Shown here: piece after piece, positions 29,311 to 44,201 of the stretch
Layout: each line of letters opens with the position of its first letter
How positions within the stretch are numbered: position 1 is the stretch's first letter
Source: Patescibacteria group bacterium
GTDB lineage: Bacteria > Patescibacteriota > UBA1384 > XYA2-FULL-43-10 > 1-14-0-10-43-13
Assembly (NCBI GenBank): GCA_041671645.1
Contig: JBAZBD010000001.1
Span: 337,217-401,216, forward strand
Direction of reading: 5' to 3'
DNA length: 64,000 nt
Translations under genes and position numbers: made by a program
Notes under the pieces: model-generated
What the model was told of the DNA's origin: nothing
Seen by the model: only the letters and a program-made list of their open reading frames with translations
The model's database searches: none

Positions 29311-29339
29311 TTGACAAAAGATCATTTTTGAGTTAACAT
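29311..29339 (+). promoter_or_regulatory. Putative 16S rRNA promoter (-35 TTGACA, 17 nt, -10 TAACAT)
   Basis: Consensus -35 at 29311..29316 and -10 at 29334..29339, about 230 nt upstream of the 16S 5' end. Confidence 0.5.
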
Positions 29340-29566
29340 CGATCTAGTCGCAAAAAGATATGGACTGTGGAAAACAAGGGGAATCGTTTTTTTTGCTTAA
29401 AAAAGCAGGAATTATTTATTTGCAGATGTTCTTTAACAACTAAATAGTGATGAGAACGCTTGAAGATCGTTTAATTCGCAAGAGTTAAACGAAATCAATT
29501 TTTTTGAGATTTTAAATTTTCTCGGCGCAAGTCGAGAAGCAAATAGAGTCACTCAAATTCTTTTTG

Positions 29567-31010
29567 GAGAGTTTGATCCTGGCTCAGGATTAATGTTGGC
29601 AGTGTGCCTAATACATGCAAGTCGAGCGATATAGCGGCAGACGAGAGAGTAATAGGAAGGAACTTGCCCCGAACTCAAGGATAGCCCACCGAAAGGTGGG
29701 GTAATCCTGGATAGTACCGCAAGGTTAAAGCTTTATGCGGTTCGGGAGAGGCCTTCCTCCTATCAGCTTGTTGGTGAGGTAATGGCTCACCAAGGCGATG
29801 ACGGGTAGCTGGTCTGAGAGGATGACCAGCCTCGATGGGACTGAGACACGGCCCATACTCCTACGGGAGGCAGCAGTAGGGAATTTTGCACAATGGACGC
29901 AAGTCTGATGCAGCAACACTGCGTGAAGGATGAAGGTTTTCGGATCGTAAACTTCTTTTACGAGGGAATAAATATGAAGGTACCTCGTGAATAAGCACCG
30001 GCTAACTACGTGCCAGCAGCCGCGGTAATACGTAGGGTGCGAACATTATCCGGATTTACTGGGCGTAAAGAGCTCGTAGGTGGTTTGAAAAGTCAAGTAT
30101 GAAAGACCCGGGCCCAACCCGGGGAACGTACTTGAAACTTTCTGACTAGAGGTGTGCAGGGGAAGATGGAACTTGTAGTGTAGCAGTGAAATGCGTAGAT
30201 ATTACAAGGAACGCCAATGGTGAAGACAGTCTTCTGGGCACTACCTGACACTGAGGAGCGAAAGCGTGGGGAGCGAACGGGATTAGATACCCCGGTAGTC
30301 CACGCCGTAAACGATGCATACTAGGAATGCGGAGAATCGACCCTCTGCGTTTCGAAGCTAACGCGTTAAGTATGCCGCCTGGGTAGTACGGCCGCAAGGC
30401 TAAAACTCAAAGGAATTGACGGGGACCCGCACAAGCGGTGGAACATGGGGTTTAATTCGTCAACAAGCGAAGAACCTTACCAGGGCTTGACATCTATGGA
30501 ATCCCGCGGAAACGTGGGAGTGCCGTAAGGAGCCATAAGACAGGTGTTGCACGGTCGTCGTCAGCTCGTGCTGTGAAGTGTACCGTTAAGTCGGCCAACG
30601 AGCGCAACCCTTATCGTATGTTAATTTTACATACGAGACTGCCGGTGTTAAATCGGAGGAAGGTGGGGATGACGTCAGATCAGCGTGACCCTTATGTCCT
30701 GGGCGACACCCGTGTTACAATGGGTAGAAACAATGGGTTGCCAAACCGCAAGGTGGAGCTAATCCCAACAAACCTACCCCCAGTTCGGATTGAGGGCTGA
30801 AACTCGCCCTCATGAAGTCGGAATCGCTAGTAACCGTGGGTCAGCCATACCACGGTGAATACGTTCTCGGGTCTTGTACACACCGCCCGTCAAGTCAGGA
30901 AAGCCGGTAACGCCCGAAGGCCTCAACAGAGGACCACGGTGGGATCGGTGATCAGGACTAAGTCGTAACAAGGTATCCCTACCGGAAGGTGGGGATGGAT
31001 CACCTCCTTT
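29567..31010 (+). rRNA. rrs: 16S ribosomal RNA
   Basis: Begins AGAGTTTGATCCTGGCTCAG and ends GGATCACCTCCTTT. Universal GTGCCAGCAGCCGCGGTAATAC and other conserved blocks. About 1444 nt. Confidence 0.97.
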
Positions 31011-31130
31011 CTAAGGAGCATCTCCCTCGATTTATCGAGGTGAGAGATGGTCGATCGCCTATCACTCGTTCTAAACGAGAGTGAGGCGAAACCTGCGTTC
31101 ATCATCACTATTTAGTTGCAAAAGAACTCT

Positions 31131-31159
31131 AAAAAAGAGCCCCTGGGCTCTTTTTTGTG
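31131..31159 (+). terminator. Intrinsic terminator immediately after the 16S gene
   Basis: aaaaaagagcccctgggctcttttttgtg with stem agagccc/gggctct and a T-run, about 120 nt after the 16S 3' end. Confidence 0.7.
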
Positions 31160-40467: not shown

Positions 40468-40865
40468 CTTTTTAGTATCAAAAATTGATCTTCATCACAC
40501 TACACAAGGGGGGTCGCAGGTACAATATTCGCCATCGGCGGACAATTATCTGTGATATTAATTTTTTGTCTGGAACAACCAGGCATTTCAGTCGGGGCCA
40601 AAGAGTGCAACTATAAGGTAAAGGTATTTTATACATTGCACTTTTACTTTGTACTTTGACAATTATATAGCGGTAATATGTTCATATAGGTGAATCATAT
40701 TACGGCAAAAAACGTAAAATACTGTAATTTTACAAAGAACTTTGAAAACTCAGCTTTGCTGAGGTGTGCTTGCAGCGCATTTCAAAGTAAAAATATTCTT
40801 CCGATATAAAAAATTTCTCAAATAGTAAACTTTTGTAACCAGCTTTTAGCTGGATCCAGAAATTA

Positions 40866-43780
40866 CTAGTCAAGTGAAGTTATGTCGAATTTCTGCATTT
40901 AGCCATCTTTGATGGCCAGATGTAAGATTTCGACCTCTAACAATTTTCGTTGCAATTAAAGGCGTATGGAGGATGCCTTGGCAGAAGATGCCGAAGAAGG
41001 ACGTAGTAGCCTGCGATAAGCCCCGGGGAGCTGGCAAACAAGCTTTGATCCGAGGATGTCCGAATGGGGAAACCCTATAGACCACCCGCCTTGTGCGGGG
41101 AGGTAGGCAAGCCGGTGAACTGAAACATCTTAGTAACCGGAGGAAAAGAAATCGAATGAGATTCCCTTAGTAGTGGCGAGCGAACAGGGATTAGTCCAAA
41201 CCGCCGAATTTATTCGAGCGGGGTTGTGGGACTCACATAATCAATACGAAAAGATAGGAGAACGAGCCTGGAAAGGACGACCATAGAGCGTGATAGTCGC
41301 TTATCCGAAATCTTAGTAGTAGCGAGGTGATGTTCCCGAGTAGCACCAGACACGTGAAACCTGGTGTGAAGCTGGGGCGTTCACGCTCCAAGACTAAATA
41401 CATCTTCTGACCGATAGTGAACAAGTACTGTGAAGGAAAGGTAAAAAGAACCCTCATAAAGGGAGTGAAATAGAACCTGAAACCATACGCTTACAAGGAG
41501 TTAGAGCCTCGATTTATCGGGGTGATAGCGTGCCTTTTGAAGAATGACCCAACGAGTTAGCTATGTGCAGCAAGCTTAAGCGAAAGATCGCGGAGGCGTA
41601 GTGAAAGCGAGGCCTAAACGGCCGATTAGTTGTACATACTAGACCCGAAACCAGGTGATCTACCCATGGACAGGGTGAAGGCGGGGTAAAACCCGCTGGA
41701 GGCCCGAACCACTAAGCGTGTCAAAGCTTATGGATGAGCTGTGGGTAGCGGAGAAATTCCAATCGAACCTGGAAATAGCTGGTTCTCCTCGAAATATATT
41801 TAGGTATAGCCTGGTATTTGTCGCAGGAAGAGGTAGAGCACTGACTGGTTTACGGCAGCTTCGGCTGTCGTACCCAAACAAACTCCGAATTCTTTCTGAA
41901 TCATACCAGAGTCAGAATGCGAGGGCTAAGCTTCGTGTTCTAAAGGGAAACAGCCCAGACCGTCGTCTAAGGTCCCCAATTATAGTCTAAGTGGTTAAGG
42001 TAGTAGGATCTCCAAAACAACCAGGATGTTGGCTTAGAAGCAGCCATTCATTTAAAGAGTGCGTAATAGCTCACTGGTCTAGTTAAGAGGTTCCGCGCCG
42101 AAAATTTAACGGGGCTCAAGATTATAACCGAAGACACGGGTTCGTTAATTTATTAACGAGCGGTAGAGGAGCGTTCTTGATGCAGTGAAGATCACGCCGC
42201 GAGGCGGGTTGGAGCGTCAAGAAGTGAGAATGTTGGGATTAGTAACGAATTATGCTAGCGAGAAACTAGCACACCAAATATCCAAGGTTTCCTGGGCAAC
42301 GGTAATCGTCCCAGGGTTAGCCGGTCCTAAGTTGAGGCCGTTGTAGTGGCGGCGTAGACGATGGAAAAGGGGTTAATATTCCCCTGCACTTTTATGTATA
42401 CCCAAATGACGCCTTGGCGTAGTCTCGAATTAATAATGGTTTATTCTTCGAGGTGTAGCTCGGGACAAGAAAAGTTTGGTTCAAAAGCATAAAAGTTCCG
42501 TACCGCAAACCGACTCAGGTGGATGAGGCGAGAAGCCTCAGGTGATCGGGAGAACTCTCCTTAAGGAACTCTGCAAACTAGCAGCCGTAAGTTCGCAATA
42601 AGGCTTGCCCTCAGCAATGAGGGCCGCAGCTAAAGAGTCCAGGCGACTGTTTATCAAAAACACAGGTCTATGCTAAACCGTAAGGTGATGTATATGGGCT
42701 TATGCCTGCCCAATGCTCGAAGGTCAAACCGGTCCTTGATCGTATTTATTACGCTAGGGGAACGACTAAGCCCGAGTGAATGGCGGCCGTAACTATAACG
42801 GTCCTATGGTAGCGAAATTCCTTGTCGGGTAAGTTCCGACCCGCACGAATGGCATAACGATCTGGACACTGTCTCAAGGAGAGATCCGGTGAAATTACAG
42901 AACCGGTAAAGATGCCGGTTACTCGCAGCAAGACGGAAAGACCCCGTGGAGCTTTACTATAGCTTGGTATTGAATCGGGGAAATAAATGCGTAGGATAGG
43001 TGGGAGACTTTGAAACTATGGCTCTGGTCGTAGTCTAGTCAACAGTGAAATACCACCCTTTTATTTCTTTGATTCTAACTTTTCTCTGTGATACGGGAGA
43101 AGGACAGTGCTAGGTGGGTAGTTTAACTGGGGCGGTTGCCTCCTAAATTGTAACGGAGGCGTTCAAAGGTATGCTTAGCCCGGATGGAAATCGGGCCTCG
43201 AAGTATAAAAGCACAAGCATGCTTAACTGTGAGACCTACAAGTCGAACAGACGCGAAAGCGGGATTTAATGATCCGATATCATCTCGTGATAGAGATATC
43301 GCTCAACGGATAAAAGTTACCCCGGGGATAACAGGCTGATCGCATCCAATAGTCCACATAGACGATGCGGTTTGGCACCTCGATGTCGGCTCATCCTATC
43401 CTGGGGCTGAAGCAGGTCCCAAGGGTCTGGCTGTTCGCCAGTTAAAAGGGTACGCGAGCTGGGTTCAGAACGTCGTGAGACAGTTCGGTCCTAATCTGCT
43501 GTGAGCGTTGGAAACTTGAGTGGGTGTTCCCCTAGTACGAGAGGACCGGGGAGCGTGAACCTCTGGTGCGCCTGTTGCATTAACCTAATGCAGAGCAGGG
43601 TAGCTATGTTCAATTGGATAAGCGCTGAAAGCATATAAGCGCGAAGCTGGCCACAAGATTAGGTTTCCATATAGACCCCTAGTAGACCACTAGGTTGATA
43701 GGCCTTAGATGTAAGGACAGCGATGTCTTCAGTCGAGAGGTACTAATAGGTCGAAAGCAATGAAAATCTACTTGACTAGT
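40866..43780 (+). rRNA. rrl: 23S ribosomal RNA
   Basis: Conserved 23S blocks (GGATGCCTTGGC, GAACTGAAACATCT, sarcin-ricin AGTACGAGAGGACCGG, etc.). Flanked by a 22 bp inverted repeat processing stem (40853..40874 vs 43768..43789). Confidence 0.95.
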
Positions 43781-43989
43781 AATTTCTGGATTCGTCCAGA
43801 ACTTATCGAGCGTTTAAGATACTTTGGTGTTGGCTCGTCCTTCGACTTCTCTTTCCGCCGATGGCGGATAGCGAGTCGATATGGGATAAGCTGGTGCCAG
43901 AGATCGAGCTCATGTTTTTTTCAAATGTGAGTGTGGCAATATTGCCACACTCCGTGTGCAAGAAACAAATATTGAGACTTTAGAAAGTT

Positions 43990-44112
43990 GTGTGTTGGTG
44001 GTTTTAGCGAAGTGGGTACACCTCTTCCCATTCCGAACAGAGAAGTTAAGCACTTCAGCGCCGATGGTACTTGGACCACAAGGTCCCGGGAGAGTAGGAC
44101 GCCGCCGACACA
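43990..44112 (+). rRNA. rrf: 5S ribosomal RNA
   Basis: CCCATTCCGAACAGAGAAGTTAAGC ... GCCGATGGTACTTGG ... GAGAGTAGGACGCCGCC. Terminator-like hairpin plus T-run at 44143..44172. Confidence 0.9.
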
Positions 44113-44201
44113 GAGTTTTCTAAAGTCTTTTTTTGTACCAAAAAATCGGGTTTGCCTCCGATATTTTTTTGGTTAATTTTTTTAATATCTGAAAACAGAC
44201 G

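Follow-up and report, generated by a model that had tools for sequence, protein, structure and literature searches.

A split ribosomal RNA locus in a Patescibacteria genome, with 16S and 23S-5S genes 9.9 kb apart and probably in separate transcription units

The subject of this analysis is a ribosomal RNA (rRNA) locus in a stretch of 64,000 nucleotides (nt) of contig JBAZBD010000001.1, from a Patescibacteria genome; the whole 64-kb stretch is called the window. The 16S gene was located by Rfam covariance models at 29561-31010 (+ strand, 1450 nt; 1482 bits, model positions 1-1533) and the 23S gene at 40946-43766 (+ strand, 2821 nt; 2561 bits, model positions 1-2925), both full length, and the 5S gene at 43994-44110 (+ strand). 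The anti-Shine-Dalgarno sequence at the 3' end of 16S is intact. From the 3' end of 16S at 31010 to the 5' end of 23S at 40946 there is a gap of 9,935 nt; the 23S to 5S spacer is 227 nt long and contains no terminator-like site. The gap holds 13 protein genes, numbered here 1 to 13, 11 on the + strand and two on the - strand, a count that combines Pfam matches, a codon-bias score trained on the long open reading frames (ORFs) of the window, ORF translations, and gene calls on a separately assembled contig. It also holds the only two transfer RNA (tRNA) genes that ARAGORN finds in the 64-kb window: tRNA-Ile(GAU) at 34321-34397 on the + strand and tRNA-Ala(UGC) at 38569-38644 on the - strand, both in agreement with Rfam. 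The original prediction, made from the letters of this DNA, had put about 9.9 kb of coding DNA with about 13 protein genes on both strands between 16S and 23S-5S, tRNA-Ile at 34321 and tRNA-Ala on the opposite strand at 38569, and had proposed covariance models for fixing the boundaries; all of this was borne out.

The gene order, 16S, tRNA-Ile(GAU), tRNA-Ala(UGC), 23S, 5S, is that of a canonical rrn operon. A canonical operon has one promoter, a short internal transcribed spacer (ITS), and no internal protein genes or terminators. This locus is of another kind, because its gap contains 13 protein genes, five hairpins of the terminator type, and a block on the - strand. The cumulative GC skew climbs over the full window; both rRNA units are apparently on the leading strand.

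Relatives of the locus (designated by L and a number) were gathered in three ways: through the undecaprenyl-diphosphate synthase UppS, encoded in the gap, in a genome collection; through homologues of a 147-amino acid (aa) gap protein; and through metagenome matches to a 20-nt core of the 16S trailer arm. The loci were then scanned for rRNA and tRNA genes. The split layout is present in every relative found, and none is linked. The rRNA features of the window are as follows:

29309-29339, + strand: 16S promoter-like site (TGTTGACA; -35 hexamer TTGACA at 29311-29316, 17-nt spacer, -10 TAACAT; 10 of 12 consensus matches)
29428-29453, + strand: 16S processing stem, 5' arm (26 nt, 92% complementary to 31102-31127; arm conserved in relatives)
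29561-31010, + strand: 16S rRNA gene (full-length Rfam match)
31102-31127, + strand: 16S processing stem, 3' arm (20-nt core identical in 12 metagenome loci and L082)
31130-31163, + strand: predicted 16S intrinsic terminator (hairpin 31130-31157 with a 12-base pair (bp) stem, then TTTTTTG)
40437-40467, + strand: 23S-5S promoter-like site (TGTTGACA, 17 nt, TAATCT; read off the sequence)
40854-40875, + strand: 23S processing stem, 5' arm (22 nt, 100% complementary to 43770-43791; arm identical in L003 and L085)
40946-43766, + strand: 23S rRNA gene (Rfam, 2821 nt)
43770-43791, + strand: 23S processing stem, 3' arm, upstream of 5S
43975-44135, + strand: 5S in an extended helix (5S at 43994-44110; helix 43975-44001 / 44102-44128, then seven Ts)

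The 16S promoter-like site is kept in four lineages, in which TGTTGACA is invariant, the spacer is 17 nt, and the -10 element reads TA(A/G)(C/T)AT. The leader and trailer of 16S pair in a stem (29428-29453 / 31102-31127) that was absent from the features first listed for this DNA. A sequence in the leader, GTTCTTTAACAA, which overlaps the 5' arm of the stem, is boxA-like in its resemblance to the E. coli rrn boxA. The terminator hairpin starts 120 nt past the 3' end of 16S and three bases past the trailer arm, and its predicted fold has a free energy of -15.6 kcal/mol (z = -4.25). A hairpin and T-run follow the invariant trailer arm, within ~90 nt, in 10 of 11 distinct relatives, while the stem sequences are unrelated between lineages. 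The terminator function is thus well supported, because structure and position are kept while the stem sequence turns over. The proposal that 16S has its own promoter and a strong terminator about 120 nt after its 3' end therefore gains support from comparison with the four lineages for the promoter and the 10 of 11 relatives for the terminator.

The 16S gene of one relative, L091, spans 977-2553 and is 1,577 nt long, versus ~1,450 nt in the window and the others, which suggests an insertion of ~125 nt. Insertions of this kind are known in rRNA genes of the candidate phyla radiation (CPR). The trailer arm of L091 lies ~245 nt past the 16S end, versus ~94 nt elsewhere.

The second promoter-like site lies ~500 nt upstream of 23S. 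The separate element postulated there is shared by three lineages (the window, L003, and L085), with TGTTGACA invariant, a spacer of 17-18 nt, and a -10 element of the form TAnnnT. The 23S leader is unusually long, ~470 nt (40475-40945), and a search of 40380-40960 against Rfam gave only chance-level hits, all with E > 0.5. Blocks of the leader beyond the promoter and stem arm are shared with L003 and L085, for example GGGGGGTCGCAGGTA..GGACAA.TATCTG and AAAAATTTCTCAAATAGTAA. A 22-bp stem had been described as flanking 23S-5S, and this needs correction: the perfect 22-nt repeat (40854-40875 / 43770-43791) encloses 23S alone, and 5S lies outside it in a helix of its own. A further hairpin with a T-run lies past 5S at 44145-44169.

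Two other candidate elements of this unit were dropped. The boxA-like GAACTTTGAAAACTCAG at 40735-40752 in the 23S leader, considered as a second antiterminator, is not conserved in L003 or L085. A 17-nt inverted pair (40526-40542 / 43854-43870), considered as a long-range stem around 23S, consists of two arms that are each a small palindrome, neither conserved in L003. Directly past 5S, at 44202-45400 on the - strand, are tandem genes whose products have an N-terminal methylation motif like that of type IV pilins; at least six similar genes are present in L097 (2400-6700), there upstream of 16S.

The two promoters resemble each other. They have in common TGTTGACA as an extended -35 element, a spacer of 17-18 nt, and TAnnnT. 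The early transcribed regions are also alike, with TAG, an A-run, and then a G-run ~40-55 nt past the -10 element. The G-run (GGGG to GGGGGG) is at 29377-29380 and 40508-40513 and in all seven leaders compared, a pattern noticed post hoc; it could be a common leader element or the trace of a promoter duplication. Overall, the promoter similarity is modest. As a dedicated rRNA promoter signature TGTTGACA was rejected: it is unspecific, without significant enrichment, and also precedes a protein gene at 33318.

The locus most probably works as at least two rRNA transcription units, a reading that rests on comparison of sequences. Two units are preferred because 10 of 11 relatives have the 16S terminator, four lineages share the 16S promoter and three the 23S promoter, and a + strand pre-rRNA cannot give rise to tRNAs whose genes lie on the - strand. 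The original prediction held that 16S and 23S "cannot be co-transcribed". Separate units are supported by the comparison, but "cannot" is too strong a word for a deduction of this sort.

Several points weigh on the other side. The promoters and terminators are consensus matches whose sole backing is conservation. TGTTGACA is not significantly enriched (five occurrences in the window versus 1.7 expected; three of 100 shuffles reach five). The -10 element of the 23S promoter (TAATCT) is weak, and the site was missed by a consensus promoter scan. On the + strand there is no terminator-like hairpin between the stop codon of gene 13 (40398) and the 23S promoter (40437), and transcripts of uppS and the 147-aa gene could therefore enter 23S. 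In the eleventh lineage (L082/L097) the hairpin past 16S is GC-rich and no T-run follows it. Finally, the 64 kb covered are a part of the genome, and a second rRNA locus may lie elsewhere.

The layouts of the relatives that bear on the gap are:

L092 (single contig): 16S, 0.8 kb, tRNA-Ile(+), 2.9 kb, tRNA-Ala(+)
L090: 16S, 1.6 kb, tRNA-Ile
L099: 16S, 1.7 kb, tRNA-Ile(-), tRNA-Ala(+)
L091: 16S, 4.9 kb, tRNA-Ile, 2.5 kb, tRNA-Ala(CGC); no 23S in the following 4 kb
L082 (603-kb contig): 16S, 7.5 kb, tRNA-Ile(-), tRNA-Ala(CGC)(-), tRNA-Ala(UGC)(-); no 23S by 19.9 kb
L085: tRNA-Ile(-), tRNA-Ala(CGC), tRNA-Ala(UGC), 4.4 kb, 23S
L003 (671-kb contig): tRNA-Ala(+), 5.2 kb, 23S-5S; UppS and the 147-aa gene immediately upstream of the 23S leader, post-5S gene as in the window
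L084: UppS / 147-aa pair present, followed by a plsY-like gene and large surface-protein genes, not by 23S

The order 16S, tRNA-Ile(GAU), tRNA-Ala(UGC), 23S is unbroken in all informative relatives, while spacing, cargo, and tRNA orientation vary. Whether the 16S-23S gap differs between related genomes had been left to a comparison of synteny, and it does: from a few kb to more than 20 kb, with lower bounds of >19.9 kb in L082, >12 kb in L085, and >12.2 kb in L003. tRNA-Ile is on the - strand in L082, L085, L086, L087, and L099. The closest relative for the left half of the gap is L099, which has genes 2, 4, 5, and 8 in the order of the window and is without genes 1, 3, 6, 7, 9, and 10. Fixed residents of the locus are a NIF3-like gene upstream of 16S, the 147-aa protein, and a 63-aa membrane protein beside tRNA-Ala.

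The UppS of the window is 78-80% identical to those of two metagenome-assembled genomes (MAGs), L002 and L003, labelled "uncultured Candidatus Saccharibacteria bacterium"; the next matches, at ≤49% identity, are from Firmicutes. Judged by these matches, the MAG belongs to the Patescibacteria (CPR) and is akin to Candidatus Saccharibacteria. The 147-aa protein of the window has an exact counterpart in NCBI, WC227_01935, from a MAG entered as "Patescibacteria group bacterium". The window 16S has two to three mismatches at each of the presumed TM7-specific primer sites, and has C at E. coli position 912 rather than U, the presumed TM7 signature; little weight is given to these. The lineage is probably environmental, outside the oral TM7 groups.

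The features within the gap are listed below. Energies are those of predicted folds.

31170-31198, + strand: perfect sigma-70 consensus promoter (TTGACA, 17 nt, TATAAT; 12 of 12), before genes 1 and 2
31342-31794, + strand: gene 1, 150-aa hydrophobic membrane protein, no Pfam family (codon bias, ORF, gene call on L100)
31791-32123, + strand: gene 2, 110-aa hypothetical protein (called as a gene on L100, a Logan contig; homologue after 16S in L099, 58% identity)
32208-32238, strand unassigned: second copy of the 16S terminator hairpin (AAAAAAGAGCCCC / GGGGCTCTTTTTT; inverted-repeat search)
32306-33280, + strand: gene 3, LPG_synthase_TM-family membrane protein (Pfam E = 2e-28; start uncertain, 32174 in the L100 call)
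33297, + strand: terminator-like hairpin, one of four in the gap beyond the 16S terminator
33388-34149, + strand: gene 4, MobA-like nucleotidyltransferase (NTP_transf_3; Pfam)
34156-34179, + strand: terminator-like hairpin after gene 4 (-17.6 kcal/mol)
34195-34223, + strand: promoter-like site of tRNA-Ile (TTGAAA, 17 nt, TATTAT, extended -10 with TG)
34537-35025, + strand: gene 5, DUF456 membrane protein (Pfam E = 1e-36; L099 homologue, 69% identity)
35096-36403, + strand: gene 6, MFS transporter (MFS_1; Pfam E = 3e-31)
36502-36900, + strand: gene 7, 132-aa hypothetical protein (codon bias)
36908-36930, + strand: terminator-like hairpin after gene 7 (-17.4 kcal/mol)
36952-37143, + strand: gene 8, 63-aa hydrophobic membrane protein (homologue in the spacer of 12 of the 12 relatives whose locus covers that part)
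37235-37762, - strand: gene 9, 175-aa hypothetical protein (ORF, codon bias)
37944-38450, - strand: gene 10, NUDIX hydrolase (Pfam E = 6e-18)
38685-38657, - strand: promoter-like site of tRNA-Ala (TTGATC, 17 nt, TATAAT, extended -10 with TG)
38704-39147, + strand: gene 11, 147-aa hypothetical protein (codon bias)
39164-39190, + strand: strong terminator-like hairpin after gene 11 (-19.9 kcal/mol, z = -7.0)
39267-39950, + strand: gene 12, undecaprenyl-diphosphate synthase (UppS, Prenyltransf; Pfam E = 1e-76)
39955-40398, + strand: gene 13, second 147-aa protein, lineage-specific (also in the rRNA spacer of relatives)

The Pfam families MFS_1, NUDIX, and Prenyltransf (UppS) bear out the three gap genes that had been named from the sequence: an MFS protein, a Nudix hydrolase, and uppS. 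Pfam searches at E up to 1 gave nothing for 36502-36900, 36952-37143, 37235-37762, 38704-39147, 39955-40398, or the 202-aa ORF at 31515-32123, which contains gene 2; gene 1 gave only chance-level hits (E of 0.2 and 0.33), far below the curated cut-offs. The four + strand hairpins beyond the 16S terminator (33297, 34156, 36908, and 39164) have energies of -10 to -20 kcal/mol. Genes 9 and 10 and tRNA-Ala make up the - strand block at 37235-38644.

Homologues of gene 8, 63-64 aa long, are at 17332-17523 in L082, 2076-2270 in L084, 7681-7875 in L085, 7558-7752 in L086, and 6255-6446 in L003; in the loci examined in detail they lie 45-520 nt upstream of a tRNA-Ala gene. Fourteen residues are invariant over six sequences of the family. 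On this comparative evidence gene 8 is a permanent resident of the expanded spacer.

The promoter of gene 1 begins 12 bases past the T-run of the 16S terminator. Genes 1 and 2 and this promoter are enclosed by two near-identical hairpins, at 31130-31157 and 32208-32238 (CTAAAAAAGAGCCCC..GGGCTCTTTTTT), whose half-sites number four in the window versus 0.29 expected by chance. It looks as if the terminator was duplicated on insertion of a ~1-kb cassette.

Two AT-rich perfect palindromes lie near the ends of the - strand block. One, at 37164-37197, has 17-nt arms without a loop and is located between the convergent genes 8 and 9; the other, at 38533-38570 and with 18-nt arms, borders directly on the tRNA-Ala 3' end. 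They may be bidirectional terminators or inversion scars. An extra tRNA-Ala(CGC), which the window does not have, is present in the gap of some relatives (L082 17568-17643, L085 4322-4397, L091 10044-10119). Small ORFs of 81-86 aa with a GIY-YIG domain, also absent from the window, are directly beside tRNA-Ala(UGC) in L084 (2376-2636), L082 (18164-18409), and L002 (4176-4436); these may be what is left of homing-endonuclease-like elements favouring rearrangement at the site.

The history of the locus, as read from these comparisons, fits an ancestral ITS enlarged by insertions and inversions. The view that ancient ITS tRNAs were stranded by successive insertions agrees with the canonical order kept in the relatives and with the varying distances and cargo, and local inversions have to be added to it. 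An ancestral 16S-tRNA-Ile-tRNA-Ala-23S-5S operon would have been pulled apart by gene insertions and small inversions. The first unit would then run from the promoter at 29311 through a ~220-nt leader, 16S, and a trailer that pairs with the leader (26-bp stem) to the terminator at 31130-31163. The second would run from the promoter at 40439 through a ~470-nt leader, 23S in its 22-bp stem, the 227-nt spacer, and 5S to the T-run and hairpin at ~44129-44169. The two tRNAs would each use their own promoter-like site, and the 13 gap genes would form several small units, each ending in a hairpin.

Three features would keep 16S and 23S in balance: closely similar promoter cores; a position 11 kb apart on the same strand, which would give equal copy number during replication; and degradation of unassembled rRNA. 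Unlinked rRNA genes are commonly explained by similar promoters combined with degradation of rRNA left unassembled, and the present locus needs no other account. Stoichiometry is thus probably kept by similar promoters, equal dosage, and degradation, a mechanism deduced, like the transcript ends, from the sequence.

A further, tentative proposal is that the former spacer has become a bounded region of gene turnover. It would have fixed edges (the NIF3-like gene and 16S on one side, 23S-5S on the other), fixed landmarks (tRNA-Ile, the 147-aa protein, the 63-aa membrane protein, and tRNA-Ala), and freely exchanged cargo. Insertion would occur at terminators or tRNA genes and would have left two traces: the duplicated hairpin on either side of genes 1 and 2 and, in relatives, the GIY-YIG genes next to tRNA-Ala. 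The 23S promoter and leader would have been copied from those of 16S, because both share TGTTGACA, TAnnnT, TAG, the A-run, and the G-run, and the copying would have kept the units co-regulated. This is a possibility rather than an expectation.

Among the alternatives to two self-contained units, the one that survives best is that 23S-5S, besides using its own promoter, receives a substantial part of its transcripts by read-through from the uppS and 147-aa genes. It draws on the lack of a + strand terminator-like site between 40398 and 40437 and on the order uppS, 147-aa gene, 23S, which is kept in L003. In L084, however, the uppS / 147-aa pair precedes the plsY-like and surface-protein genes and not 23S, which shows that the pair need not be linked to 23S, and L085 has the same conserved 23S promoter with other genes in front of it. 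The supply at mRNA level would moreover be small against the output of an rRNA promoter. A substantial contribution of this kind is unlikely.

A single very long operon, in which a termination-resistant polymerase of the boxA/Nus type crosses the 10-kb gap and the tRNAs and mRNAs are cut out of the transcript, is less likely still. The boxA-like GTTCTTTAACAA in the 16S leader would be in keeping with it, as would the common strand of the three rRNA genes and 11 of the 13 gap genes, and the term "ribosomal operon" is retained for the Saccharibacteria region by Murugkar et al. But the hairpin and T-run after 16S are retained in 10 of 11 relatives despite turnover of the stem, which argues for selection for termination, and a polymerase that escaped this site would meet four more + strand hairpins in the gap. 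tRNA-Ala and two genes are on the - strand here, as is tRNA-Ile in the five relatives named above; the promoter before 23S is conserved in three lineages; and the gap in L082 is about 20 kb or more. Two or more separate units account for these features better than one.

That these are spare or decaying rRNA genes, and that a canonical linked operon elsewhere does the work, is very improbable. It has room only because 64 kb of a ~0.87-Mb genome are covered, whereas 16S and 23S match the full Rfam models with high scores, the anti-Shine-Dalgarno end is intact, the stems, promoters, and terminators are conserved clade-wide, and all relatives found are split, with none linked. CPR genomes, in addition, usually have one rRNA copy.

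The weakest alternative, a chimeric join of a 16S contig and a 23S contig through repeated rRNA or tRNA sequence, of which the original prediction had warned, was prompted by rRNA and tRNA genes being classic break and mis-join points in metagenome assemblies and by Logan contigs that end exactly at 16S, tRNA-Ile, tRNA-Ala, and 23S, and it is practically excluded by synteny in the relatives (the same order on the long contigs L082 and L003; 16S, Ile, and Ala on one contig in L092; genes 2, 4, 5, and 8 in the same order after 16S in L099; the 147-aa protein of the window on an 867,751-bp NCBI contig; conserved neighbours on both sides of every gap stretch) and by two separately assembled Logan contigs (SRR18595301) that are 100% identical to window positions 30989-34350 and 38607-41000 and span the junctions from the 16S 3' end to gene 1 and from gene 13 to the 23S 5' end.

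The locus does not overturn current understanding, and its use is mainly practical and comparative. Long-amplicon 16S-ITS-23S methods will miss the lineage, as already reported for Saccharibacteria (bioRxiv 10.1101/2025.09.04.674341), and a linked operon should not be assumed here in binning or annotation pipelines. As an intermediate between linked and fully dispersed rRNA genes the locus is a clean case: it keeps the order, the strand, and the ITS tRNAs, and each unit appears to have its own promoter, stem, and terminator. Relatives with gaps of a few kb to more than 20 kb provide material on the break-up of rRNA operons and on the 16S/23S balance at a single copy of each.

Split rRNA genes were classically described in Thermus thermophilus, Pirellula marina, Buchnera aphidicola, and Rickettsia prowazekii. 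In those genomes a large distance generally separates the genes, and ITS tRNAs are not known to persist between them in the canonical order. The likeness to the present locus lies in the transcription of 16S apart from 23S-5S in small-genome or slow-growing organisms.

In Borrelia, as given in the legend of Fig. 1 of PMC4370689, the order is 16S, tRNA-Ala, an oppositely oriented tRNA-Ile, and tandem 23S-5S; Brewer et al. (bioRxiv 10.1101/705046) also count the genus as having unlinked rRNA genes. As in the window, a gap of a few kb separates 16S from 23S-5S, and both ITS tRNAs are inside it, one on the opposite strand. Unlike the window, Borrelia has a duplicated 23S-5S, a second, degenerate 16S in some species, and the tRNA order Ala then Ile. 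The Borrelia split arose independently, because the genus belongs to a different phylum.

In the survey by Brewer et al. (bioRxiv 10.1101/705046; ISME J 2020), unlinked rRNA genes are those with an ITS >1,500 bp, and Patescibacteria are a clade with exclusively unlinked rRNA genes; most unlinked pairs are hundreds of kb apart, with a mean of ~410 kb (bioRxiv 10.1101/705046). The 9,935 nt of the window place it in this class by distance. The other mark of the class, separate 16S and 23S transcripts, receives indirect support from the conserved terminator, the conserved promoter, and the opposite-strand genes in between. The window resembles the class also in having 23S and 5S together, a small-genome CPR host, and a clade-wide trait. 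It differs from most cases in that its rRNA genes have stayed close together, their original order and orientation kept and the two ITS tRNAs between them.

The nearest counterpart is the locus of Saccharibacteria. In oral members, the interval from 16S to 23S contains tRNAs and one to five variously oriented protein genes, with tRNA-Val(TAC) there "for most all oral taxa" (Murugkar et al. 2020, PMC7651992), and in TM7x the region contains pyrD and a hypothetical gene (bioRxiv 10.1101/2025.09.04.674341). The window is alike in having tRNA-Ile(GAT), tRNA-Ala(TGC), and protein genes in both orientations in a gap that varies between strains or species. No tRNA-Val(TAC) was found in the 64-kb window or in any relative locus scanned, and no pyrD among the gap genes of the window by Pfam; unlike oral Saccharibacteria, relatives of this lineage have the extra tRNA-Ala(CGC) and no tRNA-Val. 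The gap holds 13 protein genes versus one to five, the same kind of locus on a larger scale. The layout is thus already documented for Patescibacteria and Saccharibacteria, and the window differs in degree only. What is added here is clade-wide evidence for a dedicated 16S terminator and 23S promoter, and a view of the former ITS in which the cargo varies around fixed landmarks.

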